Notes under the pieces: model-generated
What the model was told of the DNA's origin: nothing
The model's database searches: none
Seen by the model: only the letters and a program-made list of their open reading frames with translations
In this document: positions 2,429 to 50,886 of the stretch, in pieces
Layout of the letters: each line of letters starts with the position of its first letter
Numbering within the stretch: the stretch's first letter is position 1
DNA from: Alphaproteobacteria bacterium CG11_big_fil_rev_8_21_14_0_20_39_49
GTDB taxonomy: Bacteria; Pseudomonadota; Alphaproteobacteria; Rickettsiales; UBA6187
DNA: 64,000 bases
Reading direction: 5' to 3'
NCBI GenBank assembly: GCA_002787635.1
Contig: PCXK01000009.1
Coordinates: 5,770-69,769 of the forward strand
Position numbers and translations under genes: made by a program

Positions 2429-2451
2429 AATCTATATACTATTATGAGCAT

Positions 2452-3270: not shown

Positions 3271-3353
3271 ATTTTTCTCTTAAACATACAAATTCAATTA
3301 AGAACACAGAAAAGCGGATTACCTCCACTTTTCTGTGTATTTTTTAATATAAG

Positions 3354-3830: not shown

Positions 3831-3897
3831 AGTTTTATCTCCTGTGATTCAGGGTCGGAAAAGGCACATTCTCCGACCCCGAACATTTAAGAACTTA

Positions 3898-4365: not shown

Positions 4366-4714
4366 AGTATGTCTCCTAGAGTTAATTAGATTAAAACGCC
4401 AATGACTTAATTGCCATTAACTATTCTCGGTTTTGAGAATGATTAATTAGTATAGGAAACAATCTAAAGGAACTATTACTATATACTTAAACTTCGTAAG
4501 TATGTCGTTAAAGGAGGCTAAATTTTGCGTTCTTTTAAAAGGAAAATTTATAAAAGACCTATAGGTTGAGTAATAAAACCATGGGAAAAGTAACCGTCCG
4601 GTAAAGTAGATCACTAGTTAATATATTTAGTGAACACTCTTGAGGATCTGTTTGCCGAGAAAACTCGTAGAACTTTTATGGCAAATAAACCATTATTTAG
4701 AAATACCGATTATA

Positions 4715-6958: not shown

Positions 6959-7303
6959 GATTTTTTCTGCCTTTGACGCCCGTTTTTGTGCATTTATTTT
7001 ATTATATAAGATATATAACTTTGATATTATGATAATAAAATATTAAAGTTATTTTAAAAAATGCGATTTGTTAATTTTTTAATCGCACAAGCATAATTTT
7101 ATATTTAATTCATATTAAATTATACCCTATCAGAGGCACTTGTGTCAAGGAAAAGCGACGATGATGCTTATGTTCCATTTTGAAACAGTTTGATAATTTT
7201 CATTATCGTCAGCTTTTGAATGATAATACTTTTCTTGTGTCGTGAAGTCGTTATATTTCAGGCTGTTATGTAGCAAGTGTTTTATTTTGGTACAAAAAGC
7301 TCA

Positions 7304-8638
7304 TTATATAGATTTGCGGCTTGAAACAGTTATAGAACGGAACACTACTATTATAAAAAGCAGTCCTCCGAGGATAGCCATAGAGCCGCCTGCAAAGAAC
7401 AGCAATTTGGGAAAAACGTTAGTTATTTCATGCGAAGATGCCGCAGATTTACGTAACGCACCGTAGCCGCCCATCCACGCTAAACCTGTTATATGCAATA
7501 TCTGTCCGACACCGTAAATATATGGCTGTGATGCAGCTAACTTACCCTTTACATTGCCATATCCCACTTTCGGCAGCAAATGATAACAAAACGCTATAAA
7601 TGCAAGGGTTACGGCTACTATAGAACCATGGTAGTGAGCAGGTATAGTAACGTTAACACCGCTTATCATATAACCGAGTATGCCGCCATAGCCAAACAAT
7701 ATTATAGATAAAATAAGGCTTGCCTTTATGGCGTGGGGTACTTCCTTGCTTAATTTAGATGAAAAAGCCCCGAATATTATAGCACCTCCGATAAATAATG
7801 CCGATATACCGCCGCCGCCACGCATTTGTTGGGTAAACAGGTTGTAGGCATTATCCGACATATAAAATAACGGCGAAGGTATGGTAATGATAAGATTGAA
7901 TATCAAAAGTGCGTAAATAACGGCATTAGGCAGTAATTGCTTTATTTTACATTCGCCTGCAAGATATAGCCATATCACCAGCATACATGCGGTAAATGTA
8001 TATTGTAAAATATGACCGCCTCCCCAGAAAATTGTTTCGTAATAATGGTGCAAATCATCTTTAACCATCGGTATCGGGGTTTGTTGGTGTGCTATATAAA
8101 AGCAAACTGCACAAATCAGGGTTATTAACGCAGAAATATATATTCCCGCATTCAAAATGCTTTCTTTAATCCTTTCGAACATGGCAAGGGTAAGGAACAT
8201 CTGAAACAATATACCGGTTGCAAATATGCTTAAACCTATTATGAAAAATGGATTATGCAGCATAGGGACATAATTATTCTTTATCGGGTAACTTTCACCG
8301 ATAAACGGTGCTACGGTCATCATTGTCGCACCTATTGCCGCCATGATAAAAGCCGTCCTGTATATCTTGTAATAAGCCGGACATGCCAAAAAACTCCATA
8401 ACGCCCCTGCTATGGATAAAAACCATACCAATACGGATAAATCAACATGCACTACAAGTGCAGTGGCGAAAATATGCTCAACATCAAATTTATCGGAAAA
8501 ATAAGACCCCCTTAATATTACGGGAGGCAAAGAATACAAACCTGCCGCCGCCAATGAAGCAACTGCCAGTAATATCCAGTATCTTATAAGCCTTATCCTG
8601 CTATCGTCAGGGATATTTAATTCTAGACTTTTTGTCAT
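7304..8638 (-). CDS. Polytopic (about 12 TM) membrane protein with heme-copper-oxidase subunit I-like histidine motifs
   Basis: 444 aa. FWGGGHILQY resembles the helix VI WFFGHPEVY motif and keeps the H-x3-Y spacing. IPAHYHGSIV resembles the helix X HFHYV motif. There is a helix II-like His (LVVHVDLSVLVWF). I found no HH pair where helix VII should be. It is divergently adjacent to ctaA. Confidence 0.4.
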   Translation of the reverse strand: MTKSLELNIPDDSRIRLIRYWILLAVASLAAAGLYSLPPVILRGSYFSDKFDVEHIFATALVVHVDLSVLVWFLSIAGALWSFLACPAYYKIYRTAFIMAAIGATMMTVAPFIGESYPIKNNYVPMLHNPFFIIGLSIFATGILFQMFLTLAMFERIKESILNAGIYISALITLICAVCFYIAHQQTPIPMVKDDLHHYYETIFWGGGHILQYTFTACMLVIWLYLAGECKIKQLLPNAVIYALLIFNLIITIPSPLFYMSDNAYNLFTQQMRGGGGISALFIGGAIIFGAFSSKLSKEVPHAIKASLILSIILFGYGGILGYMISGVNVTIPAHYHGSIVAVTLAFIAFCYHLLPKVGYGNVKGKLAASQPYIYGVGQILHITGLAWMGGYGALRKSAASSHEITNVFPKLLFFAGGSMAILGGLLFIIVVFRSITVSSRKSI

Positions 8639-8717
8639 CTTTTTATATAGTTCCTAAAAAATATATAGATACATATATCAGCGAAAGATTATAGTGCAAG
8701 GTTTGATTTGATAAGAT

Positions 8718-9788
8718 ATGGCTACAATAGTAAATAATAAAAGTAAATTACCGACTTATGATACGGTAGGTAATTCAAATAACAGGAAAATAGCCGTATG
8801 GCTGTTCGTATGTTGTTTTATGGTCGCCATGATGGTTGGAATAGGAGGCGTTACAAGGTTGACCGAGTCAGGGCTTTCAATGACGGGGTGGAAACCTGTT
8901 ACAGGGTGGCTTCCTCCATTGACCCAAAACCACTGGCTGGAACATTACGAAGGATATAGGAAAAGCCCTGAATACAAGCATATAAATTACGGTATGACTC
9001 TGGACGAGTTCAAGGGTATATTCCGGCTGGAATATATACACAGGCTTGCAGGAAGGATAACAGGGCTAGTTTTTTTTATTCCGTTAGTGTTTTTCATTTA
9101 TAAAAGAGTAATTGATAAAAAACTCGCACTGAAATTAACCGGAGTTTTGTTCCTCGGAGGATTTCAGGCAGTGGTAGGGTGGCTGATGGTCAGTAGCGGA
9201 CTTAAAGATACTCCGCATGTAAGCCAGTATTGGCTTGCGTTCCATTTATGCATGGCATTTATCTTATTTGCCATATTATTTCTGATGGGGCTTGGCAGAT
9301 ATATGGGGAATAAACAATTTCTGACAAGCTCAAAAGGTATAAAAAAATTCTCGTACTTTGTTACGGCTTTAATATTCGTTCAGGTATTTTGGGGGGCGTT
9401 AGTAGCAGGGCTTGATGCCGGACTGATATATAATACTTTTCCGCTAATGGAAGGTGCGATAGTCCCGAAAGGATTGTTTGAGGTGGAGCCGTGGTATATC
9501 AACTTTTTCGATAACGTAAAAACCGTACAGTTCACCCACCGATGTATCGCTATATTCTTATCACTGGTTATTGTTGCGTTCTGGTTAAAAGCAAGAAGGA
9601 CACCTATTTATAAGGTATCAGATCTTTTGCTTTTTATATTGATAATACAGTTCACCCTTGGTGTGCTGACCTTAATACACGTAGTTCCGATACCGCTTGC
9701 GTCCGCACACCAAATGGCAGCTCTGGCACTTTTTGCAGTTTCCCTATATATTAATTATATCACTAAAATTAACGGAAACTCTAATTAA
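8718..9788 (+). CDS. ctaA: Heme A synthase (COX15/CtaA family)
   Basis: 356 aa, multi-TM. Has the N-terminal signature GGVTRLTESGLSMTGWKP and conserved His residues in TM segments (FTHRCIA, ASAHQ). Confidence 0.85.
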   Translation: MATIVNNKSKLPTYDTVGNSNNRKIAVWLFVCCFMVAMMVGIGGVTRLTESGLSMTGWKPVTGWLPPLTQNHWLEHYEGYRKSPEYKHINYGMTLDEFKGIFRLEYIHRLAGRITGLVFFIPLVFFIYKRVIDKKLALKLTGVLFLGGFQAVVGWLMVSSGLKDTPHVSQYWLAFHLCMAFILFAILFLMGLGRYMGNKQFLTSSKGIKKFSYFVTALIFVQVFWGALVAGLDAGLIYNTFPLMEGAIVPKGLFEVEPWYINFFDNVKTVQFTHRCIAIFLSLVIVAFWLKARRTPIYKVSDLLLFILIIQFTLGVLTLIHVVPIPLASAHQMAALALFAVSLYINYITKINGNSN

Positions 9789-19099: not shown

Positions 19100-22000
19100 T
19101 TATTGTAAAGGAATTCCCCATTTATCACTAAGGTAAGTTTCTACGGTATTCCTTTCTTGATTATTAAGTTTATTATCATATAGAACTATCTCACCGATAT
19201 CTCCGTAATAAATTTCAGTAAATACCGAGCCGACTTTCCAGCCTCCTATACCTCCCGGTCCCCATTGAGTTAATTTATTCTTAGTAGCAGGATTTGTACC
19301 GCCGCCTTTATAAGAACTGTTTCTATAGTATGAAATTCTATTGGCATCATATGATACTACGGAAATATTATGTATACCGACTCGGTACTGATGACCGAAC
19401 ACATACCTTGTTTTGTCTTTTCCTCTATATAGCATTAATCTGGAAGGACTAGCATCAAACGTTAGCCATACAGAGTCCTCCTCAACATCGCCGTTAGATC
19501 CTATAAGCGTCATATATTTACTAGAATCAACACCTGAATATTGATACTTGTTTTCCTTATGCATCACAAAAAGTGAGAAACCTGCGGTATAACTTTTATA
19601 TGGATAATATAAGAGATTCTGGTTAAACCTTACAGTCGGATAACCGTTTTTTCCTTGCGACTTGCTTGTATATAAAGGTCTAAGCGACGTATTACTTTGT
19701 TTAGCATGATAATTGTTACCTGATTTATCTTTCCAGCAAGCAATCCTGTCACCTCCGGGATTTGCTTTACCCGTACAATTAGTATTTTTGAAAACCGTAT
19801 TACCGTCTTGTGCGTCAAACCACATCACCATATCCGAAATAGTAACTTTGTCGTAGTCAATATTTGGAACGCATGCATTTCTCTCGTTCACCCATTGACC
19901 TGATTTATCACAATTCATAAGAGGAGATCCGTTATATCCTTCGTTACAAACACCTGTAATATTATTTGTACTAACCGGTGTCTTAGGATATCTGGCATTA
20001 TTTATAACGGCAACCTGACAATGAGTCTCAGGTACGTAATCAGGTGTGCAGGCTCCAATCTGATTTACCCAGTTACCGTCGGAATCACAATCCATCGTCG
20101 GAAAACCTGAGTATCCTTTATCGCATTTTCCGTTAACACCGGTTTTTCCACTAAAGGTCTTATCGTACGTTGCGTTATTAATAGTTTTTGTCGGACAAAA
20201 TTTTCTGCAAGAAAGCCTTTCATTTACCCATATTCCTTCAATTGAGCAATCCGCAACCGGACTACCTTCATAGCCGTTAGCGGTATCACATTGCCCCTTA
20301 ATATCATCTTCACCGGCAAATGTCTGAGGGTAAGTAGCATCATCACCCGTAGAGGCGGTACTGTTAACTGCCTTTCCTGCATTACATACTATTCTTTCAC
20401 ACGGCACGATAACATCACCCCATGTTTCATCAGCATTACATCTTCTCTGAGCCGTTCCTATAACATGATAACCTTCATTACACCTATCTGAATGTGCTAT
20501 ACTGTTTTTTGGGGTTGCAGGCCAGTAAGCATTTCCAACCAGATCATTTGTAGCATTACATATACCGCTTGTGCAATTATTACTAGCTGTCTCCCATACA
20601 CCGTTATCATTACAATATTCTGTTATCGTACCGTTAGAGCCGTTATCGCAGTAGGCTCCTTCTTTTACCCTGTATGAACCTACGGATTCACCGCCGTCAC
20701 ATGTAATTGGGGAGCAGGTATCTATTAATGTAGTCCAATAATCAGTATCCGGAGCTTGTGCGTCCATACAGATCAATGTGTGCTTTCCGACCTTGCCTCT
20801 AGGACAGCCTATATCTTTAGTATCACCGGCAGTACATGACCCGCTATAATCCGGAGTACATGTCGAACCTACCGAAGTTACTTCCCAACCACCTGAAATA
20901 GTACAAACTTCTTTTACCGTTCCTATATAATCAGATCCGCAACTTAATCCCGAATTGCCCGATACACCTATATCTTTAAAATCACATTTTGTAGGTGAGC
21001 ATGAATCGTCAGTGTTAACCCACTTGTTGTCCGTACAGGTTTGAAGTAAATACCCCTCCTGACCGAGACCACACGCCTGTGTTTTTCTAACTTCACCGTT
21101 ATTTTGGCACGGACTACTCTCCTTTACCGAGCAATCGTTGTTTTCTATCTCCCACACACCGCTTTCATTACACCTTTGAAGAATTCCTGAGCCTACCATA
21201 TTATTTATACAGCCTAAACGTCTTGTATCTCCGAATAAACCGCCATCACTACATTTTACTTCTTCACATTTGCTATCCATAACTTCCCAGCTACCGACAT
21301 TATCTTCGTTTACACGGCAAGTTTCTATTATCGAGCCTTCATATCCGTCAGGACATGTTTGTGAAGGATCGCTTTTCTGCCTTGTAAGTCCAAGTGCGTT
21401 ACAACTACCCGTTACAGGTTCCATATCTATATTCTTACTACCTCTTATAATAAAAATTAAACGGCATGAAGCCGTTTTCATAGAAACATTATATTTTCCG
21501 TCGGAATTAATACAATCCGTGCCATTGCCATCAGCTAGCACTATTCCTTTGCTAGGGTTTCCGTCATCGAGCTTTTCATCTATGGACTTTGCATCCTCAG
21601 CGGTTATTATGGCTAGCGTATTATTACTATCTAAATGATTATAACCTGCAAGCTCAATTGCTATTGCCTGTTCGGAAATATTGCCCGAAGTAATCGTGCC
21701 GGCAAGCCTTACTTTATATCCTCCACCTTCAATATTTGCGGAAGGGACACCTTTGCCCGGTGTATAAGTCGAGCTACCGTCATATCTCCCCTGAAGAAGC
21801 CCCGCAATTGCCAAATGATGCCAAAAACCGATTGCCTCAGCTTCGGTATCAATAACACCGTTACCGTTGCCGGGATTTGCATTCGGCAATGAGCTAACAT
21901 CGGCTATATCTCCCGGAAGGGCGTTATATTCTTTCTCAAATTTTTCGACGGCTGTAGAAAATTTAGATATTTGGGAAAGTACATTGTTATTTTTTGTTTT

Positions 22001-22123
22001 ATTCAGAACCGCAGAACCACCCAAAGCCATTACTACTATTGCAGAAACCGACGCTAAAACCACAGACATCTCAGTGAAACTAAAACCTCTGCTTGAACCG
22101 AATAATTTTAATCTAGATATCAT
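19100..22123 (-). CDS. Giant modular type IV pilin/pseudopilin: pilin domain, ten Sushi/CCP-like four-Cys modules and a LamG/ConA-like C-terminal domain
   Basis: Prepilin motif SRG/FSFTEMSVVLASVSAIVVMAL (Gly-1, Phe+1, Glu+5). Pilin head with a D-region-like Cys pair (C204, C220). Between aa 241 and 751 there are ten modules, each with exactly 4 Cys and one Trp placed 7 (once 9) residues before Cys4, e.g. CQVAVINNARYPKTPVSTNNITGVCNEGYNGSPLMNCDKSGQWVNERNAC. The C-terminal roughly 250 aa end in ...NQERNTVETYLSDKWGIPLQ, typical of Laminin_G_3-type domains. Confidence 0.7.
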   Translation of the reverse strand: MISRLKLFGSSRGFSFTEMSVVLASVSAIVVMALGGSAVLNKTKNNNVLSQISKFSTAVEKFEKEYNALPGDIADVSSLPNANPGNGNGVIDTEAEAIGFWHHLAIAGLLQGRYDGSSTYTPGKGVPSANIEGGGYKVRLAGTITSGNISEQAIAIELAGYNHLDSNNTLAIITAEDAKSIDEKLDDGNPSKGIVLADGNGTDCINSDGKYNVSMKTASCRLIFIIRGSKNIDMEPVTGSCNALGLTRQKSDPSQTCPDGYEGSIIETCRVNEDNVGSWEVMDSKCEEVKCSDGGLFGDTRRLGCINNMVGSGILQRCNESGVWEIENNDCSVKESSPCQNNGEVRKTQACGLGQEGYLLQTCTDNKWVNTDDSCSPTKCDFKDIGVSGNSGLSCGSDYIGTVKEVCTISGGWEVTSVGSTCTPDYSGSCTAGDTKDIGCPRGKVGKHTLICMDAQAPDTDYWTTLIDTCSPITCDGGESVGSYRVKEGAYCDNGSNGTITEYCNDNGVWETASNNCTSGICNATNDLVGNAYWPATPKNSIAHSDRCNEGYHVIGTAQRRCNADETWGDVIVPCERIVCNAGKAVNSTASTGDDATYPQTFAGEDDIKGQCDTANGYEGSPVADCSIEGIWVNERLSCRKFCPTKTINNATYDKTFSGKTGVNGKCDKGYSGFPTMDCDSDGNWVNQIGACTPDYVPETHCQVAVINNARYPKTPVSTNNITGVCNEGYNGSPLMNCDKSGQWVNERNACVPNIDYDKVTISDMVMWFDAQDGNTVFKNTNCTGKANPGGDRIACWKDKSGNNYHAKQSNTSLRPLYTSKSQGKNGYPTVRFNQNLLYYPYKSYTAGFSLFVMHKENKYQYSGVDSSKYMTLIGSNGDVEEDSVWLTFDASPSRLMLYRGKDKTRYVFGHQYRVGIHNISVVSYDANRISYYRNSSYKGGGTNPATKNKLTQWGPGGIGGWKVGSVFTEIYYGDIGEIVLYDNKLNNQERNTVETYLSDKWGIPLQ

Positions 22124-24391: not shown

Positions 24392-25918
24392 TTATTGTAC
24401 AAATGTAATGTTATTTGCAGCGGAATTAGGGAAATGTAAGTCACGGTTAACAAACACTTTTATTCTGGTTCCCTGCTGAACTATTACGGTAGGTTTGTCA
24501 TTTAACAATCCCTCGGCTATACTATCGGCAATATCGCTAATATCACTAACAGACGAAAGTACCGCAGCATCTGTCGTTGTTCCCGTATTAGAAGTAGTGG
24601 TACTTCCATCGGTGTTTGTAGTTGAAGTTGAGGTCTGTTGTTGCGATTCGTTAATATCATCAACTAACAGTGAAGTTCCTATTGATAAAGTACTCAATAA
24701 TAGAGCATTAGTGATTATATCAAAATATTTGTAGTCAACAAACCCCGGAATACCTGCCCTTCCCATTTTATCGGTTCCGGGTGAATCTATCATTATATCA
24801 ATACCGTCCGGTCTTATAACCCTTGTCCACTCAATTACAACCCTTCCGGCTCCCTCATCGGGAACGGTATAATTACCTATAAGCCTTGATCCTTTAGGAA
24901 TTAATATATTTCTACCCGATTCGGCGTAAGTATCTCTACTTATTATCGCTCTTATAACGCCGTCAAGATCAGTGTTAATAGCCGTTTCTAAAACAGCATC
25001 AATCATTTTTCCCTGAGCTATCATATTATCGGTATTGCCGATCAGTGCTGCCTTGCTTTTATCGGCAGAAGTTAGCTGCATTTCAAAATCACCGTTTAAC
25101 AGTTCATCCAGTTCTTTTTGCCGTGTACTTGCGTTTCCCGCTCCGCCTCCTCCGCCTCCTACCATCAACATCGGCTGGCGTCTTTTAGCTGATTCTTTTG
25201 CAGCAATCTCTTCAGGAGTAGGACCTCCTACGTTGACCTGCACAGGTGTCCTTGCAACTCTTGAAGTAATTGATGTAGTAGCCGGAGCTACAACAGGTAC
25301 GGCAGGGACTGATGCCTTTACTTCCATGGTAGGAGGCAATATACCGCCGACACCTGTCGGTCGTTCTGTTTGTACGGTAATTTCCTTCCACCCTTCAGGA
25401 TCAAACTCTTGATCATTAGTCTGATTCTGATTGAAGGTAGGCCACTGTTCGAAAATATTTTTATCACTATCTTCGTCACTAAAACCATCACCTTTAGGCA
25501 TGTTCATTTTGCTATCATCTACCAGAGATATTTCATCTTCAAAATTGGGGAGTTCAGGTGCTTGTGCAACACCTACGTTCAACTGAATGCCATCGGAATC
25601 CTGCGTTGGTCTGACTGCATTTTTAACAGGCTGTGACTTTATGTCTTCCTGTATTTTTTTCGCTTTTATCTCTTCATCGGTTTGTTTAAATACAAGATTA
25701 TATACAAGATATAAACTACCTATTAATACGACACCAAGTAATAATATGTTCTTGCCGGGAGTTGATGCTAGTGCAGAAGCCTCTTCCTGAACTTCAATAT
25801 CATCATCTAGGTTATCAACATTTACCGTATTGATTTGCTCTTCATAATCACCCTTGCCGATATTAGAATCATAATCATCATCGTCAGGTATATTATTATT
25901 GTTGTTACCTACTAACAC
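24392..25918 (-). CDS. virB10: Type IV secretion system protein VirB10
   Basis: 508 aa. One TM segment, a Pro-rich linker, and a C-terminal VirB10/TrbI-like core (AVLETAINTDLDG..., GIPGFVDYKYF, VIVQQGTRIKVFV). Low-complexity N-terminus (NNNNN, DDDD) and a GGGGGGAG tract. Confidence 0.9.
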   Translation of the reverse strand: MLVGNNNNNIPDDDDYDSNIGKGDYEEQINTVNVDNLDDDIEVQEEASALASTPGKNILLLGVVLIGSLYLVYNLVFKQTDEEIKAKKIQEDIKSQPVKNAVRPTQDSDGIQLNVGVAQAPELPNFEDEISLVDDSKMNMPKGDGFSDEDSDKNIFEQWPTFNQNQTNDQEFDPEGWKEITVQTERPTGVGGILPPTMEVKASVPAVPVVAPATTSITSRVARTPVQVNVGGPTPEEIAAKESAKRRQPMLMVGGGGGGAGNASTRQKELDELLNGDFEMQLTSADKSKAALIGNTDNMIAQGKMIDAVLETAINTDLDGVIRAIISRDTYAESGRNILIPKGSRLIGNYTVPDEGAGRVVIEWTRVIRPDGIDIMIDSPGTDKMGRAGIPGFVDYKYFDIITNALLLSTLSIGTSLLVDDINESQQQTSTSTTNTDGSTTTSNTGTTTDAAVLSSVSDISDIADSIAEGLLNDKPTVIVQQGTRIKVFVNRDLHFPNSAANNITFVQ

Positions 25919-25921
25919 TTA

Positions 25922-26686
25922 TCACCCCTCATTATAAATATAAACAACATCGTCATTCATCCTTAACGCCAATCTATCTATTAGCTGCTTTACTACTATA
26001 TAATCTCCCTCTCTGAAATAGGTGGCTCTTTCTTCTTTTCCGTCACTTGAAACCGTAAACAACTTAGGAACTACGGCATTATTGTTACGGAACTGTAAAT
26101 ATGTACTTTGACCGTTATCAAATACCTTGACCGGAGCAAAATCCTCAGGACCCGTCAAGGTGTAATTAAAATTATATTCTTCTTTTTTTACAACCGGCTG
26201 ATACACCTCGACTGTTTCCGGCGTATATTTACCGATATCCATGTTCATATCAACAATTTGAGCCTTTGGTTTATCAAGGTCTTCCAGCGGATAGAAAAAT
26301 CGTACCACATACACAAGGTCTTCATCTAAGTTATCATCCGGATATTTAGACTGTAACTCAAACTGATAGGTTCTCTTATTTGTTATTACGGTCATGTTGG
26401 TCTGTGCATCACCCTCTATAGCCTTTATGAACAGACGGCGGTCAACCGGAGTTATTTTCCATGAATAGTTGTTACCTATTGAGATAGTTTCTATTTCTTC
26501 ATTCTTAGCGAACTCTATATTAGACTGATATCCGTACTGCACAGTAACATGAAAAACTTCGTTCTCATTATAGACAAAGGTTTTTATCCTACTATCCGTG
26601 GTGATAGGCGTTTTGCCATATGCTACCGAATTACCGTAAAAAACAGTACATACTATGATTAAAAATTTATATATATTATTTTTCAT
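25922..26686 (-). CDS. virB9: Type IV secretion system protein VirB9
   Basis: 254 aa with a signal peptide. VYNENEVFHVTVQYGYQSNIEF...WKITPVDRRLFIKA...TNMTVITNKRTYQFEL is VirB9/TrbG-like. Confidence 0.9.
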   Translation of the reverse strand: MKNNIYKFLIIVCTVFYGNSVAYGKTPITTDSRIKTFVYNENEVFHVTVQYGYQSNIEFAKNEEIETISIGNNYSWKITPVDRRLFIKAIEGDAQTNMTVITNKRTYQFELQSKYPDDNLDEDLVYVVRFFYPLEDLDKPKAQIVDMNMDIGKYTPETVEVYQPVVKKEEYNFNYTLTGPEDFAPVKVFDNGQSTYLQFRNNNAVVPKLFTVSSDGKEERATYFREGDYIVVKQLIDRLALRMNDDVVYIYNEG

Positions 26687-26739
26687 TCTTTTTTTACCTT
26701 CACACTAAGTTATATATAATTTATAAAATCATCTCTTAA

Positions 26740-27510
26740 TTATTGACCGACCGCAGGTTCACTCGGAACAGTACTCAAAACATCCTCGGTCTCATAATAA
26801 GTATCAGGGTTTACGGCATATCTTGTTACCTGAAATCCTAACGGATTGATACTTAGTTCCGCTAATGTATTTTCAAGATCCTCAAATTGAAAATCTATTA
26901 TTGCACTATATCTTCTCGTTAAGGTCTTGCCCCTTGATACTGTGGTTGTTGCCTTAAAATTAACAAGATAAGTCATAACCACGTTTTTATCTTTACCTTT
27001 TTGGAGATTCAAATTCGACCTGTCATTGATTGATAATACTTCAATATCCCTTCTTGAGCCACGCGACCTTATCGATGATTGTATATCGTCTATCTCTCCG
27101 GATCTCAATTTTTCCCTAAAAGAGGTATAAGACGCTTGGTTCGATAAAAGCCTTACCTTTTTATAGTAATCATCTTTATATGTGGATGGGTTATAACCTT
27201 CTCTTGCCTGCACATATTGGAACAGGAAGTAACGCTTCAGAGCCTCTTCCTGACTGATTCTTTCACGCAGGAAAGGTCTTATAACGTTAGTTATGCCGGT
27301 TTTTTCCTCAATCTCAATAACAAAAGGTTCTATTTTCTTGCTTGAGGTAACCTCAATGATACCGAGGGTAGATATAATAATCCCTACAGTTGATATCAAT
27401 ATTAAAATGACCAGAAAGTTTCTTTGCACGACAACAGTTTGATACCTGTCCTCATACCAGTTTTTACTCGCTGCAATTGATTCGTCTTTTTTATTTTTTT
27501 TAAAAAACAT
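26740..27510 (-). CDS. virB8: Type IV secretion system protein VirB8
   Basis: 256 aa. N-terminal WYEDRYQTVVVQRN followed by a single TM and a periplasmic domain. Position is upstream of virB9. Confidence 0.85.
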   Translation of the reverse strand: MFFKKNKKDESIAASKNWYEDRYQTVVVQRNFLVILILISTVGIIISTLGIIEVTSSKKIEPFVIEIEEKTGITNVIRPFLRERISQEEALKRYFLFQYVQAREGYNPSTYKDDYYKKVRLLSNQASYTSFREKLRSGEIDDIQSSIRSRGSRRDIEVLSINDRSNLNLQKGKDKNVVMTYLVNFKATTTVSRGKTLTRRYSAIIDFQFEDLENTLAELSINPLGFQVTRYAVNPDTYYETEDVLSTVPSEPAVGQ

Positions 27511-29327: not shown

Positions 29328-30395
29328 TTAGTCTTTTTCTTCAACGGTACTTTTTATAAGGGTGATTAGATATTCTATATTTTCTATACCGCCTTCTTCC
29401 TCATCGAACATAAGCATATTTGTTATGATTCTTTTTGAATCTCTTTCAAAAAGTTTTACGCCTGTTCCGGAAAGCTCATCGCTAAGGTTATTAATAACAC
29501 AAAGTAATGTTTCGGTAGCATCGAAGAGGTTATCGGGCAGCTCTGCCCTTTTATAAAGCTCACTAAAACTATTTGATGCGTCACTATCAAGTATTCTCCT
29601 TATATTAAGGGTGGGTACTTTTAATTTTCTGGCAACACACATTTCAAAAAGCTTTCTGTTCCCCATACAAAGAGCGTAAATCGGAGCTATATTTTCCTGC
29701 ACTCCTCTTTCTTTGATAATTTTGATAAACAGGCAATATTCCTTATCGACATCTTTTTGACATTTTTTATCATCAAGTGTCTGTTTATCATCTTCTCGGA
29801 CGATTTTTTCCCGAACCGTATTTAAGATACTTGCAGGCACTCTTTCTCTATGCTTTACCGAGATAAGTACAGCTTTTACCTCAGGGAATTTCTCAACTAT
29901 CTCTTTATATCCGTCGTCTGAAACGGCAGCTCCTTTGTTATTTAATAAAGTAACTACAACGTCTTCATGTCCTTTATGTATAAGTGCGTCCGAAACGCCC
30001 TCTGAAACCGTTTCACGTTTTGATATGGTTTTTTGTTTTTCAATGTCATCGGTTCTTTCTATTATATATACCAGATTTTCATCAGTCAGGACTTTTGAAA
30101 ATTCCAATATAGGTATTGCGACAATATCAATATCCTGAGCCAACTGCATGACAAGGTCGTTTGAAGCATTTAATGCGTTCTTTATGGACTCGGATATTCC
30201 GCATTTTACAAGAGTATCGGACTCTCTTACAAGTGACCTTAGGATTCTTTCAGAAGCTTCTTTTTGCTGAACGGACAAACTTTCGGAAGTGTAATATTTA
30301 CCTATTTTTTTTATTACTTCCATTTTTGTTTCTAAAGGACTCTTTAAGAGAACTTCAATATCTACATCAGATACTATATTTTTTTCCGCACTCAT
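29328..30395 (-). CDS. DUF2336-like protein (paralogue 1)
   Basis: 355 aa. ...IVAIPILEFSKVLTDENLVYIIERT... resembles the alphaproteobacterial DUF2336 core as I recall it. Clear paralogue of 30423-31475. Confidence 0.5.
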   Translation of the reverse strand: MSAEKNIVSDVDIEVLLKSPLETKMEVIKKIGKYYTSESLSVQQKEASERILRSLVRESDTLVKCGISESIKNALNASNDLVMQLAQDIDIVAIPILEFSKVLTDENLVYIIERTDDIEKQKTISKRETVSEGVSDALIHKGHEDVVVTLLNNKGAAVSDDGYKEIVEKFPEVKAVLISVKHRERVPASILNTVREKIVREDDKQTLDDKKCQKDVDKEYCLFIKIIKERGVQENIAPIYALCMGNRKLFEMCVARKLKVPTLNIRRILDSDASNSFSELYKRAELPDNLFDATETLLCVINNLSDELSGTGVKLFERDSKRIITNMLMFDEEEGGIENIEYLITLIKSTVEEKD

Positions 30396-30422
30396 AACAA
30401 ACTTTTATTCCTCAGGCTTTAA

Positions 30423-31475
30423 TTACTTATTTACCCCAATATTGATTAATGACACGAGATATTCAAGATTTTCGGTAACATCCATTTCTTCTGCGAGCAT
30501 TATCATATTATTTATTACTCTTTTAGCTTCCGATTCAGTCAGGCTTGATATTTCGGTATCAATATCTTCACTGAAACCCCTTAATACCAAAAATAACACC
30601 CTGCTTGCACTATGAAGCTTATCCGGCAGGTTTGCCCTTTGATATATGATATCGAATTTTTCACCGTTTTCGTCATTATTAAGTAGCTTTGAAATATTTA
30701 CAACCGGTATGCAAATATTTCTTGCCACACATAACTTAAACAGCTTAAAACTCCCTTTGCATAAAGCATAAATCGGTATTATATCATCGTTAATACCTTT
30801 TTCCCTTGCCCGCTTGATAAAGCTGCTATATTCCATGTCGTCACTATGCTCTGCGACCTCGTTCATATTTTCCGGCGACATTTTTTTTGCAGCATCACGT
30901 ACTATATATAGAGGTACTTTAGGACGCTGCATGACCTCTTCCATAATTGATTTTTTATGGGCAAAGATTTTTATGATATCCTCATACCCCTTGTCGGGTA
31001 CACGTGAACTTTTATTACGCAGCAACGTTACTATAACCGCCTCATGTTTTTTATCTATCAGGGCATTTGATACTACATTTGAAACGTTTACCCTTTTAGA
31101 AATGCTTTTTTCTTTTTCAATGTCATTTGTTTTTTGTATTATATAGATAAGGTTTTCATCTGTAAGAACCGGCGAAAATTCCAATACCGTTATGGATACG
31201 ACTGTAACGTCTTCCGCCAGATGCATTACTATTTTATGCGGAATGTCATTAGAGTTCTTGATGGACTCGGACATAGCCTGCCTAACCTGCTCATCAGGCT
31301 CACTCTCGGCGATGGTAGATATTATTTTCTCAGCGGCTTTTTTTTGTTCATCTGAAAAACTGCCTGCGGTATAATACTTACCTATTTTCTTTATTATATC
31401 CAACTTGATATCTTTCGGACTTTTTAGCAGTGCATCAATATCAACTTCAGATAAAATTCTCTTTTTTGCTTGCAT
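30423..31475 (-). CDS. DUF2336-like protein (paralogue 2)
   Basis: 350 aa. Collinear with the neighbour (VDIDALLKSP..IKKIGKYYT.., VVSITVLEFSPVLTDENLIYIIQKTNDIEKEKSISKR). Confidence 0.5.
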   Translation of the reverse strand: MQAKKRILSEVDIDALLKSPKDIKLDIIKKIGKYYTAGSFSDEQKKAAEKIISTIAESEPDEQVRQAMSESIKNSNDIPHKIVMHLAEDVTVVSITVLEFSPVLTDENLIYIIQKTNDIEKEKSISKRVNVSNVVSNALIDKKHEAVIVTLLRNKSSRVPDKGYEDIIKIFAHKKSIMEEVMQRPKVPLYIVRDAAKKMSPENMNEVAEHSDDMEYSSFIKRAREKGINDDIIPIYALCKGSFKLFKLCVARNICIPVVNISKLLNNDENGEKFDIIYQRANLPDKLHSASRVLFLVLRGFSEDIDTEISSLTESEAKRVINNMIMLAEEMDVTENLEYLVSLINIGVNK

Positions 31476-34715: not shown

Positions 34716-35687
34716 ATGGAAACTACATTATCAGCTAAAAGGAAGGGTGACGCACTAATAACTATCAGACAGCATAACAATAATAAAGTTGTTGAAGTTG
34801 TCGGTATGAACCCTGCTGCGGAAAAATTAACAGGCTATAAGCCCGAAGAACTTGTCGGAGGCAGAATTGCTTCACTTTTACCCGACAGGATAAATGAATC
34901 TCTCGAAGAAAATATTGAGTTTGAAGATCCTTCATATGATTTTGCATCGGTTGCAAGAAAGATACCTAATTTTCAGGTAAAAAATAAGAACGGCAAAAAA
35001 ATAGAAGTTAGCATGAAGATATTTTATCTAACATCTAAAAATCCGACCGTTCAGGATTATGAGATATTATTGAGGGATATAAGGCTTATCAAGAAGATTG
35101 AGGAGTTGAAAAACGAGATAGCCTCTGAAATGAACGGACGCGGCTCTACGGATATCAGCACTTTAATGCACGCATATAATACCGCCTATAAATTTATTGC
35201 CGAAGATCCTATTGAAGTCACATTCGTAACTCTTGGAATAGATAATTTTTCAAAGCTTGCAAGTCATGATGAAATGACCGTATCTAAAGTTATAAATAAA
35301 TACACGGACATTATTAAGAAAACATGCCGTAATGAGGATATTGCGGCACATATTGAAAACGGGGTAATCGGTCTGGTTTTACTTGATTGTAATACACAAA
35401 ATGCCAAAGACGTTATAATAAACCGTATAATAGATAATATATCCTCTAAAACTATCGGTTTATTTGACGGAACCGAGTTTAATACAACCTTAACAGTATG
35501 CTACACTCAGCTTATAGCCGATGACAACCCTACTGATATTTTTAATGCTTGCATTGACAAAACCTTATATAATCAGCAACTTGGTGGAAATTCAATTTCC
35601 GAGTTATTTGATGACTTAGCCGAAGAAGACGGGCTTGATGAGGAAAGATATGAAGAAGGGTATATTGAGGGTGACTCAAAATACTAA
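34716..35687 (+). CDS. PAS domain protein with a degenerate GGDEF-like C-terminal domain
   Basis: PAS-like VVEVVGMNPAAEKLTGYKPEELVGGRIASLLPD. The C-terminal domain has GIDNFSKL (compare DIDHFKxIND) and AAHIENGVIGLVLLD where R.GGDEF..ll would be expected. Confidence 0.5.
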   Translation: METTLSAKRKGDALITIRQHNNNKVVEVVGMNPAAEKLTGYKPEELVGGRIASLLPDRINESLEENIEFEDPSYDFASVARKIPNFQVKNKNGKKIEVSMKIFYLTSKNPTVQDYEILLRDIRLIKKIEELKNEIASEMNGRGSTDISTLMHAYNTAYKFIAEDPIEVTFVTLGIDNFSKLASHDEMTVSKVINKYTDIIKKTCRNEDIAAHIENGVIGLVLLDCNTQNAKDVIINRIIDNISSKTIGLFDGTEFNTTLTVCYTQLIADDNPTDIFNACIDKTLYNQQLGGNSISELFDDLAEEDGLDEERYEEGYIEGDSKY

Positions 35688-45751: not shown

Positions 45752-46094
45752 AATTTTTGAGCAAGACACGAAATTAATGCGTTTTTGAAGCAAAAACGTT
45801 ACCGAACCGCCGCCTTTTGTCACAAAGTAGCTACAGCAGTCTAAGTAGCTAATAATTAATAAATTTTTAATAAAAAATAGCTATAATTTTATATTACAAG
45901 TTAACTATTTATTAACCTAATTAACGTATAAATAGAATTTAGAGGTAATGTTTCTTTTTGACACAAGGTATAATTATTAGAAAAATTTTGTGCAAAACAA
46001 GTAGAAACTAACCGATAAAAATAATTTAAGGAAACTGTAATAGGTAAATAATAAGGGTAGAAAGCATCAAAATTGCGTTCATAAGGTATTGAAG

Positions 46095-47939
46095 ATGAAA
46101 TTTTTAAGTAAAAAATTAATTACATTCACCAAAGCAACAGTTTATTTTTCTGCGTTTTGCATGGTTACATCGTGCATTCCTATGACGAAAATAACTCAGG
46201 CAGAGATAGACCGAGTCAATAACGAGATAATCGATCCCGAACTGGGGCTTAGCCGTCAGCAGCTTAAAGACTCATTGAAGCCTTCGCAGGTAAGAGACAC
46301 TAATAATGACCGTGACGATCGCAATAATCGTGCAAGGAATCTTAATGCAAGACATAACTATGAAGGCTCAAAAAATGATAATGACTACGGTTACAATGCA
46401 AATGGCTATACGGAGCCGGCTATACCCGAAGCATCTAATATATTAACCACTCCTATACCTTCATCCGTAATGAACGACAAACTTATATCGATTTCAGTTA
46501 CCGATGACATACCTTTAAAAGATGTGCTTATAGAATTATCACGCCTTGCCGACGTGGATATGGAGATAGACCCGAGAATAGACGGCGGTATCATATTGAG
46601 AGTGAAAGACAAACCGTTCAACACTGTAATTGATAAGGTTTCCGCCCTTGGAGGTTTAAGGTACAGTGTTAAAGACGGAATAATGAGAGTTGAAAGGGAC
46701 ACTCCGTATAAAATGGATTATGAGGTAGACTTCCTTAATATGACAAGAACCTCTGAAAGCAGTATAAGCGTTGACACTCAAGGTTTGGGCGGTTCTGAAT
46801 CAGATCTACCTTCGGGTTCTGCAAGCAGCACTACCCAGTCATCCGAGGCTGATGTTTGGACATCTATTGAGGAGACCGTAACCAACATATTAAATTTCAC
46901 TCAGCAAACCAATATACTATCTACCGCCAGATTTGAAGATACCACAGCAGCGGCATCTAACGGTTCGGCTTCTTTACAATTGAACAGACAGGCAGGTGTA
47001 ATCTCTGTTATTGCGACTAACAAGCAGCATGAAAGTATTAAGGATTATTTAGAAAAAGTTCGTAAACAAGTATCTACGCAAGTTTTAATTGAGGCAAAAG
47101 TTGTTGAGGTAACTCTTGACGAACAGTATCGTAGCGGTGTTGACTGGAGTTACCTGAGCAGCGAGAACAGTGCACTTTCTATAACAGGAAACTTTGATGC
47201 TGCTATAAGCAATACTGCCGACTTCTTCACGATAAGTGCATCACACACCGGAGCATCCAGCTTAACCAATGCTATAAGCTTTACCGAACAATTCGGCGTA
47301 ACAAGGACTTTATCCAGCCCAAGGTTAAATGCGATGAATAATCAGCAGGCGGTATTGAGCTTCGCCGAAAATCTAGTGTATTTCACTATTGAAGCTCAGG
47401 AAGAAGAAGAAGATGACGGTGCAGGCGGAACAAGCACGACCCTTACTATTGATTCCCAATCAAACACAATACCGGTAGGGGTTATACTTACATTGCAACC
47501 GTCTATCAATTTAGAAACTAATGAAATTACTATGCATGTTCGTCCTACTCTTTCAAGGATAACCGATACCGTGTCAGACCCCGGTGTAGCTATCATTGCG
47601 GCTCGTAACAACGTACCTTCTATTCAAAGCAATATTCCGATAGTGGAGATAAGGGAGTTGGATTCCGTATTGAAGATAAAAAGCGGTGAAATAATGGTTA
47701 TAGGCGGTCTGATGCAGGATATACAAAGCAGCGAGGATAAAGGCGTACCTTACATGAACAGGGCTCCTATAATCGGCAATCTGTTCAAAAGCAAGGTTCA
47801 AACTACCAGTACTGTTGAAACCGTAATATTTATAAAAGCTACGATAATCCAAAATAACGATACCCGTAGCATACATAAAGACGATAAAAATTATTACAAC
47901 ACGTTCGTTCCTAGGGATTCTCGTCCGCTGGCATTCTAA
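46095..47939 (+). CDS. Secretin (GspD/PilQ superfamily; lipoprotein, MshL-like)
   Basis: Possible lipobox MVTSC. Secretin core VLIEAKVVEVTLDEQYRSGVDW ... LDSVLKIKSGEIMVIGGLMQD...GVPYMNRAPIIGNLFKSK...ETVIFIKATII. The track start is TTG 46089; an ATG lies at 46095. Confidence 0.85.
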   Translation: MKFLSKKLITFTKATVYFSAFCMVTSCIPMTKITQAEIDRVNNEIIDPELGLSRQQLKDSLKPSQVRDTNNDRDDRNNRARNLNARHNYEGSKNDNDYGYNANGYTEPAIPEASNILTTPIPSSVMNDKLISISVTDDIPLKDVLIELSRLADVDMEIDPRIDGGIILRVKDKPFNTVIDKVSALGGLRYSVKDGIMRVERDTPYKMDYEVDFLNMTRTSESSISVDTQGLGGSESDLPSGSASSTTQSSEADVWTSIEETVTNILNFTQQTNILSTARFEDTTAAASNGSASLQLNRQAGVISVIATNKQHESIKDYLEKVRKQVSTQVLIEAKVVEVTLDEQYRSGVDWSYLSSENSALSITGNFDAAISNTADFFTISASHTGASSLTNAISFTEQFGVTRTLSSPRLNAMNNQQAVLSFAENLVYFTIEAQEEEEDDGAGGTSTTLTIDSQSNTIPVGVILTLQPSINLETNEITMHVRPTLSRITDTVSDPGVAIIAARNNVPSIQSNIPIVEIRELDSVLKIKSGEIMVIGGLMQDIQSSEDKGVPYMNRAPIIGNLFKSKVQTTSTVETVIFIKATIIQNNDTRSIHKDDKNYYNTFVPRDSRPLAF

Positions 47940-48105: not shown

Positions 48106-48909
48106 ATGAAAACTATAATTAAGTACACAATCCTTACCGCATCTAGGGATTTGTTGTTTATAGGTCTATGTGCCATAATTTTCATGGCATATGGTTTTTC
48201 CGTATTTGTAGGTAACACGGCTTTGGTAGAACAAGGGCAGATGTCTATGGCATATTTTGCCGGTTCAAGCCGTATAATCATAGTTACCGGTCTGATAGTG
48301 TTTGTGTGTTTCCATGTCCGCAGGTCGTTTGATAACCGTGAGGTAGAGTCTATATTGTCCAAGCCTATCTCAAGGAGCCGTTTTGTTATAGCATACTGGC
48401 TCGGTTTTTGTTTCCTTGCGTTTGTTTCTATAGTTCCCATCATACTTATAATCGGTATTTTCTTTATGCCCGGTCTTATAAGTATGAATTTAGTTTCCCC
48501 TTCCGAACACTGGCTGGGGCTTTTGGCGTGGTCAGGCAGTCTTGTAATGGAAGTATCCATAATAGTCGCTTTTGCGATGCTTGCCTCTCTTATCATGAAA
48601 AGTGCGGTTAGTTCGGTATTATCAAGTTTTTCGTTTTATCTGATATCACGCCTGATGGGTTTTTTCATAGCTACTATGGACGCTCCGGGTGCTATGATGG
48701 GTGGCGGTAAATACGGACATGTGCTTGAGTTCATCCTGGAAAAAGTAGCATACATCTTGCCGAGGCTTGATCTTTTTGCAAAAAGCAAATGGATAATATA
48801 CGGGGTATCGGGTCAAGAAGATTTGTGGGTATTCCCTGTTCAATCAATAGTATTCATATTGCTTTTATTATCTGTTTCAGTGTACGATTTTAAAAGAAAG
48901 CAGTTTTAA
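48106..48909 (+). CDS. Integral membrane protein (ABC-2-type permease-like topology)
   Basis: 267 aa with about 6 hydrophobic helices. No ATPase partner is in the window, so the family assignment is weak. Confidence 0.4.
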   Translation: MKTIIKYTILTASRDLLFIGLCAIIFMAYGFSVFVGNTALVEQGQMSMAYFAGSSRIIIVTGLIVFVCFHVRRSFDNREVESILSKPISRSRFVIAYWLGFCFLAFVSIVPIILIIGIFFMPGLISMNLVSPSEHWLGLLAWSGSLVMEVSIIVAFAMLASLIMKSAVSSVLSSFSFYLISRLMGFFIATMDAPGAMMGGGKYGHVLEFILEKVAYILPRLDLFAKSKWIIYGVSGQEDLWVFPVQSIVFILLLLSVSVYDFKRKQF

Positions 48910-48936
48910 TAAAAGGTTTGATATAGGTAGATCAAA

Positions 48937-49770
48937 ATGTCACAGAAACGTTTTTACAGGTCGGATATATTTGTAGTGATATTCCTTGCGGTACAGATAT
49001 TGTTATGGCATGAAACCAAAAAATTTAAGCCGGATTTTTCTATAGTACCCGATGTTCCGAGCAAAGAATCGGTAAAGGCTATTTCATTGGGAGATGAACA
49101 ATTTTACTTTAGAACGCTGACCTTCCAGTTGCAAAATGCAGGCGATACGTTCGGCAGGTTCACGGCACTAAGGGAATATAATTTTGTTAAACTTTATAAC
49201 TGGTTTAAACTTCTTGATACGCTGGATCCCAAATCACATTTCGTCCCTTCGATAGCAGCTTATTATTTCAGCCAAACCCAAAACACCCCAGATGTGAAGT
49301 ATGTTGCCCAATATCTGGAGGAACACGCGGAAAAAGATCTGTATAACAAGTGGTGGTGGATGGGGCAGGCAGTGTATCTTGCCAACCATAAACTAAAGGA
49401 TAAGGATTGGGCATTAAGGCTTGCTTATAAGCTTTCTGAAACTCCTCGTGATGATGTGCCTATGTGGGTAAAGCAGATGCCGGCTTTTATACATGAAAAA
49501 CGAGGTGAGAAGGATCAGGCAATGGGTATAGTGTGCAATATTATCAAGAATATTGATAATATTGAGCAGGGCGAGATTAATTTTATGACGCATTTTGTTC
49601 TTGAACGCCTTGACGAACAATATCAGGGACTTCCTATGAACGAGCAGATAGCTAACCTTGCGAAGGATTGCCCTCAGTTCGAAAGATTGTATGAAAATAA
49701 TCTTTCTGATTTTGAAAAAAAGCCGAAAAGTGAAGATGCTGATAAAGAAGATGACTCGGCGAGCAATTAA
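48937..49770 (+). CDS. Hypothetical membrane-anchored protein
   Basis: 277 aa. One N-terminal TM (IFVVIFLAVQILLW) and an acidic C-terminal tail. No family recognised. Confidence 0.4.
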   Translation: MSQKRFYRSDIFVVIFLAVQILLWHETKKFKPDFSIVPDVPSKESVKAISLGDEQFYFRTLTFQLQNAGDTFGRFTALREYNFVKLYNWFKLLDTLDPKSHFVPSIAAYYFSQTQNTPDVKYVAQYLEEHAEKDLYNKWWWMGQAVYLANHKLKDKDWALRLAYKLSETPRDDVPMWVKQMPAFIHEKRGEKDQAMGIVCNIIKNIDNIEQGEINFMTHFVLERLDEQYQGLPMNEQIANLAKDCPQFERLYENNLSDFEKKPKSEDADKEDDSASN

Positions 49771-49791
49771 TCAAGACTACAATATACACAG

Positions 49792-50886
49792 ATGTTAATA
49801 GAGAAAGTTACTTTAAGTTTTGTTCAGTCTTTACATTTAGCGGCTTTATTTCCCTGCGTTATAGTTATTTTCTACCTTCTTTATAAAGCAAGGCAAAAAG
49901 AGCTGGTTGTTGTTCCGACATTATATTTTTTATCCCTGATATCGGGAATATCGGCATCTTTACTACCGGCATTTATTAATATGCAGGAACACCAAAATCT
50001 TGAGGCATTCCTGATGTTGGGTGAGGCGTTCATACCTTCCATTAGTTTTTTACTGGTATTCCAGTTTATACTTAACAGACTTCCACCGAGCTACTACTGG
50101 CTGGTACTGACGATACCCACTTTAACTGCCGGCCCTCTTTTATTTAAGTCTATCGGGCTTGATGAGCTTTGCCTTGTTATAGATGTATGTTTTAAATCAA
50201 GCGTATTTACAAATCTTAATAATATAATTTTATCGTCATTGATATTTATCCTTCTTACATTGATAGTAGGAAGGCGTAGGTCTGAGATAGTAGGAGACAG
50301 GGTATATAAGAAATATAAATACTGGCTGGTTATTTCGCTTATCATTTATAATGTAGGATTATTGTTACTTGATCTGGGTTATGTTTCCGAGAATGTATCT
50401 AGGGCAAGATATGATTTTGCTAAAATAATATTTAAGATTGCTTTCATATATATGGTTATGACATCTATTTTCCGTGTATTTACCGATTTGTTTGATGTCG
50501 GTCTGCCTCCGTTGTCTTTAAAGAAAAACTCTTTGACAAAATATGAACAAAGCTTATCTGAAAAGATATATATCTTACTTGAGGATAGGAAAGTTTACAG
50601 GGAGGTCGGTTTTAACAGAGCTAAGTTATCCGAAACTCTCAACATAAGCGAGCATATGCTATCGAGGATAATAAATATAAAGTTCAAAAAGAGCTTTAGC
50701 GATCTGGCGAATGACTACAGGGTAAAGGAGGCAAAGGATTTGTTGAGCAACTCTGAAAGTCCGGTTACCGATATATCCTATGATGTAGGTTTTAATAGCA
50801 TTGCCTCGTTTAATCGTGTATTTAAGAGCCTTACAGGTAAATCACCCACCCAATACAGGGAGGACATGAAGAAAGGCATTGTATGA
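49792..50886 (+). CDS. Membrane-embedded AraC-family transcriptional regulator
   Basis: The N-terminal roughly 230 aa are multi-TM. The C-terminus is an AraC-type HTH (LSETLNISEHMLSRIIN...DISYDVGFNSIASFNRVFKSLTGKSPTQYR). Confidence 0.75.
   Translation: MLIEKVTLSFVQSLHLAALFPCVIVIFYLLYKARQKELVVVPTLYFLSLISGISASLLPAFINMQEHQNLEAFLMLGEAFIPSISFLLVFQFILNRLPPSYYWLVLTIPTLTAGPLLFKSIGLDELCLVIDVCFKSSVFTNLNNIILSSLIFILLTLIVGRRRSEIVGDRVYKKYKYWLVISLIIYNVGLLLLDLGYVSENVSRARYDFAKIIFKIAFIYMVMTSIFRVFTDLFDVGLPPLSLKKNSLTKYEQSLSEKIYILLEDRKVYREVGFNRAKLSETLNISEHMLSRIINIKFKKSFSDLANDYRVKEAKDLLSNSESPVTDISYDVGFNSIASFNRVFKSLTGKSPTQYREDMKKGIV

Follow-up and report, generated by a model that had tools for sequence, protein, structure and literature searches.

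Closest described systems and the protein under study

Modular type IV pilins carry, behind a pilin module at the N-terminus, at least one grafted module that is not of pilin type, and a survey of this class recorded over 1,200 proteins with 264 architectures, the commonest being N_methyl-PF13385 with 229 proteins (Raynaud et al., 2021, PMC8179133). The window analysed here (the whole stretch of 64,000 nucleotides from contig PCXK01000009.1 of Alphaproteobacteria bacterium CG11_big_fil_rev_8_21_14_0_20_39_49) encodes a protein of 1007 amino acids (aa) that falls within this definition, with a pilin head, ten modules of the complement control protein (CCP, or Sushi) type and a lectin-type domain. 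As judged from homology and a structural model, it is a modular prepilin-like protein that carries a class III signal and a complete pilin module, followed by four extra Cys-rich or beta-rich regions. Our reading, to which we give a probability of about 0.62, is that it acts as a modular minor pilin of a type IV pilus resembling the mannose-sensitive haemagglutinin (MSHA) pilus, probably located at the tip, where it would serve adhesion by presenting a lectin at the end of a CCP stalk.

PilC of Streptococcus sanguinis is like the present protein in having a class III signal, a pilin module and a lectin module of the ConA/LamG type. The two differ in that PilC has a short linker between its modules whereas the present protein has a stalk of ~510 aa made of ten CCP-type modules; PilC also belongs to a monoderm whereas the present protein comes from an alphaproteobacterium-like diderm that has a secretin, and no sequence similarity is detectable between them. 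The original prediction, which was made from the sequence without database searches, knew of no pilin that displays a ten-unit CCP-like stalk together with a lectin, and this claim of novelty agrees with the literature covered: the dataset of the 2021 survey is without any Sushi architecture (PMC8179133), and no description of a CCP-bearing pilin was found in full-text literature searches.

The modules themselves have their counterparts in animal CCP proteins (CR2, CD46, beta2-glycoprotein I, factor H and CR1/SVEP1-like proteins), which share with the present protein tandem modules of 50–60 aa, four Cys, a Trp between the third and fourth Cys (C3 and C4), a C-x-x-G-Y motif and linkers of 3–9 residues. 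Unlike these animal proteins, the present one is bacterial and fused to a pilin, six of its modules are shortened to 37–46 aa, and the likeness implies no complement function. The head in turn shares homology with stand-alone prepilins of 230–290 aa, with which it shares the motifs LPGD, GNGNG-ID and DDGNP and a terminal Cys pair; these prepilins end where the first CCP-like module of the present protein begins. As to the filament, the closest known relative appears to be the MSHA-type IVa pilus (MshL, MshE, MshN), since the secretin of the window is nearest to MshL and clusters that contain head-family pilins share with MSHA a PilB/MshE-like ATPase, a PilC-like platform protein, a TPR protein and an A24 peptidase. 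The scores lie under the equivalog cut-offs, which points to a related system and not to MSHA itself, and the window holds only part of it.

The gene and its cysteine framework

The predicted frame is present from ATG to stop at 19100-22123, on the minus strand, which the original prediction had left unstated; its nucleotide range for aa 241–751 (19871-21403) is also right when read on that strand. The gene sits between recG and a CHMI-like gene. Because the identical protein recurs on 16 metagenomic contigs, in each case with the CHMI-like gene and a methyltransferase gene as its neighbours, it is considered a real, conserved gene, and an orthologue (P0002) with 64% identity matches it in Cys number and in its downstream neighbour. 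The 16 identical copies and the retention of all 44 Cys at this degree of divergence indicate, from comparison of the sequences, that the gene is under purifying conservation. The possibility of an artefact or a pseudogene was discarded on the identical ORF (open reading frame) in 16 contigs and the conserved Cys.

The 44 Cys, counted by script, comprise C204 and C220 in the head, 40 residues arranged in ten fours between C241 and C751, and C783 and C796 in the C-terminal domain. The ten consecutive four-Cys modules of aa 241–751 were thereby reproduced as predicted, and so were the spacings: from C3 to the Trp, modules 1 to 10 have 10, 6, 5, 6, 11, 6, 6, 6, 6 and 6 residues, and from the Trp to C4 nine modules have 7 and module 4 has 9. 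The claim of a single Trp per module stood for nine modules and failed for module 7, which has two (W534 and W568). The C-[ND]-x-G-Y motif expected after the second Cys (C2) was found as C-[ND/P]-x-G-Y in modules 1, 7, 9 and 10, and a longer variant follows C2 in module 8. The linkers from C4 to the next first Cys (C1) have 3–9 residues. There are two size classes that the prediction had not separated, with modules 1–6 of 37–46 aa and modules 7–10 of 50–60 aa. The pattern is not due to chance, because the Cys and Trp of the modules are invariant or almost so in 16–67 homologues and every module is related to every other by profile–profile comparison.

Pilin genes often have a promoter of the sigma54 type. 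Upstream of this gene the search for one gave only an imperfect candidate (TGGAAC-N5-GTTCT), which is not counted as evidence, and sigma70-like matches there are at background level.

Prepilin signal and pilin head

The N-terminus reads MISRLKLFGSSRG followed by FSFTEMSVVLASVSAIVVMALGG, which agrees with the predicted class III signal in providing Gly-1, Phe+1, Glu+5 and a hydrophobic stretch of ~21 residues. Additionally, Gly-Gly occupies mature positions 22–23, a region where many pilins have a helix breaker. The motif G/F-[ST]-[LFI]-[VT]-E (the slash marking the predicted cleavage) is found in about 60 of 73 related representatives, which were picked by a simple motif screen.

The structural model was built by AlphaFold with an alignment of 67 sequences and reached a mean predicted local distance difference test score (pLDDT) of 86, compared with 30 in a single-sequence run. 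It shows an alpha1 helix of 51 residues (residues 16–66), then a helix and a beta-sheet of 4–5 strands (134–139, 154–162, 167–170, 195–199 and 218–227 by DSSP), and residues 41–230 are modelled mostly at pLDDT above 90. The Cys pair that was predicted to close a pilin-sized head, C204/C220, is conserved in the family and lies at the end of the modelled sheet. A profile of the head gave only type IV pilins as top matches in the PDB (geopilin, PilE1, PilA and MshA), although weakly (E ~0.01). The profile search retrieved 231 proteins, and those listed are almost all stand-alone prepilins of 200–320 aa (mostly 230–290), which align over ~90% of the head and many of which are annotated as prepilin-type; some are named ‘pseudopilin PulG’ by the JGI.

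The N-terminus might only resemble a prepilin signal, in which case the protein would be an ordinary Sec-dependent surface or secreted adhesin. The motif databases lean this way for the protein itself: the Pfam N_methyl family (PF07963) scores only 12 bits (E 0.17) where the cut-off is 21.2, and NCBIfam gives no match at all, TIGR02532 included. The predicted N_methyl assignment is thus borne out in several relatives, which pass the cut-off, and not in the protein itself. However, the homology to prepilins of pilus operons extends beyond the motif to the whole head of 236 aa, the model has the long alpha1 helix, the signal motif is conserved in over 60 clusters, and the hydrophobic segment comes after the Gly and not ahead of a Sec cleavage site. 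An ordinary Sec signal was rejected on the head homology, the helix and the conserved motif, and we regard it as highly improbable.

CCP-type modules

The assignment of the modules to the CCP/Sushi family, as first proposed, stands by sequence and by fold for modules 7–10, and modules 1–6 are tied in via profile comparison only. When the whole protein was compared with the PDB by phmmer, all 17 matches were CCP proteins, among them CR2 (2.4e-9), CD46 (5e-7), beta2-glycoprotein I, factor H, C2 and a CR1-like protein. These matches span aa 484–752, with C2, C3, the Trp, C4 and the next C1 in register, so that direct CCP matches are restricted to modules 6/7–10. A library-wide HMMER search with aa 1–759 as query matched thousands of multi-Sushi proteins, including SVEP1-like and annelid proteins and, at E 2.8e-80, an amphioxus CR1-like protein in which Pfam finds 42 Sushi repeats.

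In Pfam, the Sushi family (PF00084) reaches 17.0, 17.4 and 14.6 bits on modules 7, 9 and 10, under the gathering cut-off of 20.7; the suggested Pfam check therefore failed for the protein itself and succeeded in 5 of 16 relatives, which score Sushi. The sole family returned by the Pfam/NCBIfam scan of the whole protein is Ephrin_CRD, which matches modules 8–10 (29.6 bits on module 9, with a cut-off of 27); the Cys-rich region of Eph receptors contains a sushi-type fold. The Pfam family HRM matches modules 7 and 9. Modules 1–6 gave no Pfam match when scanned singly, and phmmer of modules 1–5 alone against the PDB gave no CCP match.

Profile–profile alignment by hhalign gave probabilities of 95–98.7% among modules 1–6, 96.7–99.3% among modules 7–10, and 79–96% between the two groups over the half that contains C2, C3, the Trp and C4. 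Because this comparison links both groups over the C2–C4 half, modules 1–6 are read as N-terminally shortened CCP derivatives that would have lost most of the C1–C2 segment. They are confidently modelled as small beta modules, and Foldseek of the confident model, which had been suggested as the structural check of the modules, ranks CR2 first (1.3e-12), followed by beta2-glycoprotein I, CD46 and CD55.

The similarity of modules 7–10 to CR2, CD46, factor H and amphioxus CR1-like proteins is significant, and it could suggest that the protein mimics animal complement regulators, its CCP modules binding complement or CCP ligands after their gain by transfer from an animal host. The identity to animal CCPs is nevertheless only about 26–29%, six of the ten modules belong to a shortened subtype of bacterial style, and of the two metagenomes listed for the identical protein, one (3300025007) was sampled from Crystal Geyser groundwater and not from animal tissue. 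Moreover, in relatives the CCP block is constant and the cargo varies, which suits a spacer rather than a ligand-binding site. Complement mimicry as the main function was rejected on the groundwater source and the constant CCP block, and it appears scarcely credible.

C-terminal lectin-type domain

The C-terminal domain (aa 762–1007) is modelled as beta-rich with a terminal helix, and it is assigned as a jelly roll of the ConA/LamG type and putative carbohydrate binder, in accordance with the prediction, on Foldseek comparison of the model and on homology to the C-terminal domains of a relative (P0003). Foldseek retrieved the lectin-like domains of trypanosome trans-sialidases (~1e-10), domain 4 of AbnA (5hon, with a TM-score normalised to target length, TMt, of 0.63), the CBM40 structure 2v73 (TMt 0.56) and S. 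sanguinis PilC (7oa7/7oa8, E 5e-7, TMt 0.40–0.44). By BLASTP the domain matches the three tandem C-terminal domains of P0003 with E values of 2e-41, 5e-35 and 3e-22. The Pfam family Laminin_G_3 (PF13385), which had been named for this domain, is found in 9 of 16 relatives, P0003 included (as a match to that protein as a whole), and leaves the protein itself unmatched even at E 10, so that this part of the prediction was not upheld. A phmmer search of the domain alone against the PDB gave nothing meaningful.

Relatives and their variable cargo

Of the 150 best cluster representatives (clusters at 50% identity), 92 have a head that local hidden Markov models recognise. From these comparisons, the family with CCP-like modules is large, unstudied and seen mostly in metagenomes. 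Its members range from 337 to 3863 aa and have 5–10 CCP-type modules, with a mode of 8, the present protein and its orthologue P0002 having the most. LamG-like copies, from 1 to 13 each, occur in 40 of the 92 clusters; other members end after the modules or bear Lcl_C/DUF1566 or unassigned tails. Comparison of the relatives showed that the head and the first ~8 modules are constant and that the C-terminal cargo is variable. In related genomes, tandem arrays of 3–5 family genes lie between tatC and rnt. A tatC-side array of this kind probably shares a genome with the present gene, since the protein that matches the neighbouring RecG at 100% (P0158) and the paralogue P0006 both occur on contigs of 471,287 bp. 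The variable C-terminal cargo on a constant head and stalk, together with the tandem genes, fits a diversifying adhesin family.

Some arrays contain split or fragment genes (L064 12862-17747; L065 6424-9920 and 17822-21265). One fragment pair consists of a 496-aa product with the head and modules 1–5, followed by a 1089-aa piece that starts in module 2, and a second split pair in the tatC–rnt arrays has 762 aa and 381 aa. One array copy is without the Glu+5 of the signal (NKGVSVFGILF). These split and fragment copies may reflect recombination, decay or an assembly artefact.

Head homologues were found in Rickettsiales metagenome-assembled genomes, Caedibacter, Caedimonas, Micavibrio, Bdellovibrionales, Limnobacter and others. 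Only 2 of 63 species-representative loci with a head homologue have CCP-like modules (L001 with 8 and L003 with 6), and nearly all the proteins at the other 61 are short.

Pilus machinery and the proposed mechanism

The head is assigned to the pilins of an MSHA-like type IV pilus because of locus linkage in other genomes, synteny of the window with one of these loci and the MshL-like secretin. In NCBIfam the window secretin scores best with MshL (3.9e-64, better than GspD and PilQ), and by tblastn its homologues lie within a few kb of a head-family pilin in 10 other loci. In the Bdellovibrionales locus L008 the order is secretin, head-family pilin, second prepilin, ATPase of the PilB/PilF type (with an MshEN-like N-terminal domain, E 1e-122) and platform protein of the PilC type (E 4e-37). 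In the Micavibrio locus L009 it is TPR protein, intact A24 peptidase, two ORFs, secretin, three ORFs and head-family pilin. Window positions 45020-50886 are syntenic with 1794-9754 of the latter locus, sharing the A24 homologue, the secretin, two unknown ORFs and an AraC-like ORF (the third ORF of the window set, 49792-50886). The pilin slot of the Micavibrio operon is empty in the window, where a uracil-DNA glycosylase gene stands instead, and the best match of the Micavibrio pilin in the window is the head of the present protein (Table 1).

Two tandem 326-aa prepilin-like paralogues precede this cluster. They have in common a DGWGRRF motif and Cys-rich C-termini, with weak matches to the GspG N-terminus and TIGR02532, and their homologues adjoin head-family pilins in L005-L008, L047 and L069 (Caedibacter, Caedimonas and Bdellovibrionales). 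They probably supply additional subunits to the filament system of the present protein.

Table 1. Coordinates in the window of the modular prepilin-like gene, its parts and the candidate pilus genes
Feature	Position	Strand	Basis
Whole ORF, modular prepilin-like protein, 1007 aa + stop	19100..22123	minus	ORF list and translation
Predicted leader peptide, aa 1–13 (MISRLKLFGSSRG), ends in Gly-1	22085..22123	minus	sequence and family-wide motif; predicted cleavage
Pilin module, aa 14–236, starts F+1...E+5	21416..22084	minus	AlphaFold, head profile, prepilin homologues
Short CCP-like modules 1–6, aa 241–517, 37–46 aa each, four Cys and one Trp	20573..21403	minus	layout, hhalign, model
Full-size CCP/Sushi modules 7–10, aa 522–751, 50–60 aa each	19871..20560	minus	phmmer, Pfam, Foldseek
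ConA/LamG-like jelly roll, aa 762–1007, C783/C796, ends ...ERNTVETYLSDKWGIPLQ	19103..19840	minus	Foldseek, BLASTP, model
Two tandem 326-aa prepilin-like paralogues (GFSLVEL...)	42666-43646, 43661-44641	minus	N_methyl matches
Prepilin-peptidase (A24) homologue, 243 aa	45020..45751	plus	Pfam A24_N_bact only
Secretin, nearest MshL (MSHA-type pilus)	46089..47939	plus	Pfam Secretin, NCBIfam
Three ORFs, 48106-48909, 48937-49770 and 49792-50886	48106..50886	plus	tblastn against Micavibrio L009: E 3e-35, 9e-53, 3e-37

In the proposed mechanism, prepilin peptidase would cleave after Gly13. Docking into an MSHA-like type IV pilus would rely on the hydrophobic N-terminus of alpha1 together with Glu+5, and the pilus itself would be assembled by the machinery to which the secretin and accessory genes at 42.6-51 kb belong. 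A subunit of ~105 kDa would be unable to pack along the shaft and would therefore be of low abundance and most likely sit at the tip, in line with proposals for other modular pilins. The ten CCP-type modules, with putative disulfide staples and linkers of 3–9 residues, would form a thin, protease-resistant stalk, which would measure a few tens of nanometres if animal CCP strings are a guide. The stalk would hold the ConA/LamG-type domain off the filament, where it may bind a glycan on the surface of a partner (host, prey or particle).

Several results weigh against this proposal, besides the sub-threshold N_methyl and Sushi scores and the missing Laminin_G_3 match of the protein itself. The A24 homologue, which is the sole prepilin-peptidase homologue in the window, keeps the Cys-rich CxxC...CxxC N-terminal domain in an apparently intact ORF, and it has lost both catalytic Asp motifs (AID/LPD of Micavibrio being replaced by VCIV/LLE, and GLGD by ANLV); it gives no peptidase match in NCBIfam and may be a pseudo-peptidase with another role. 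No gene for an extension ATPase (PilB type) or a platform protein (PilC type) was found in the window, the only match of the T2SSE family there being VirB11, beside VirD4. Finally, the gene is 23 kb away from the secretin cluster, to which it is tied via homology and synteny in other genomes only.

The lack of both catalytic Asp in the A24 homologue and of ATPase and platform genes in the window would suit a protein whose class III signal is merely an anchor or export tag, so that it stays at the inner membrane or in a short pseudopilus, processed or uncleaved, is not polymerised into a long pilus and is still a surface or periplasmic binder. Models for such behaviour are the pseudopilins of the type II secretion system and archaeal sugar-binding proteins with class III signals, and the weak GspG-type matches of the neighbouring 326-aa prepilins, the ‘pseudopilin PulG’ names among the head homologues and the size of the largest family members, an awkward cargo for a pilus at up to 3863 aa, point in the same direction. 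On the other hand, the secretin is nearest to MshL and not to GspD, the ATPase of related clusters is PilB/PilF-like with an N-terminal domain of the MshEN type, and most family members strictly retain G-1 and E+5; inside the periplasm, moreover, there would be little sense in a ten-module stalk with a lectin. An anchor without a long pilus is the main rival but is considered unlikely, and incorporation into an MSHA-like pilus is preferred.

Large glycosyltransferase clusters adjoin some of the stand-alone pilin genes of the head family (L067 1-8004 and L069 9931-15230), and in L068 such a pilin gene comes directly after a response regulator of the sigma54 type. These neighbours are hints of pilin glycosylation and PilR-like control in those genomes.

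Significance

Through modular pilins it is understood how new functions can be added to simple pili. As a general class they have been described before, and no long-standing question is resolved here. What the present family adds is a new design principle, namely a long CCP spacer with putative disulfide staples between pilin and binding domain, in which the stalk is constant and the cargo variable. It is tentatively suggested, as a possibility, that widespread bacterial pilins use animal-type CCP repeats as a long constant pilus stalk with an interchangeable lectin or other cargo at its end. If this were true, it would be the first CCP-stalked pilus adhesin, the tandem arrays with fragment copies could recombine and so vary the adhesin, and CCP strings would be an ancient component of bacteria, or one that passed between them and eukaryotes, and not an invention of animals; in any case the family provides bacterial material for the question of the origin of CCP repeats. 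The family is also a concrete subject for work on the attachment of uncultured alphaproteobacteria to their partners; some of these bacteria possess VirB type IV secretion, and some have kinship with lineages whose members inhabit other cells or their surfaces.

Genomic setting and other surface systems

The neighbours of the gene in the window (GC content ~39%) include recG, virB8-9-10, virB11-virD4, flhA, trcR and DUF2336 genes, and they point to an alphaproteobacterium. Its lineage within that class is a deep one, the nearest named RecG sequences (from a Rickettsiales metagenome-assembled genome, Terasakiella and Magnetospira) having only ~53% identity. The virB8-virB9-virB10 and virB11-virD4 blocks are separate (24392-27510 and 35684-38508, both on the minus strand), and such a scattered arrangement of VirB genes is typical of Rickettsiales. 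The host association that the original prediction had assumed is plausible for this organism, which has a VirB system and counts predators and endosymbionts among its relatives.

A set at 2452-6958 (minus strand) encodes a PapD-like chaperone, two DUF4402 proteins and a 747-aa ORF without family match, and looks like a small fimbrial cluster of the chaperone–usher type; a third DUF4402 gene lies at 54125-54610 (minus strand). The organism may thus have several kinds of surface fibres. Additionally, the minus strand carries a pair of neighbouring DUF2336 paralogues (355 and 350 aa) at 29328-31475.

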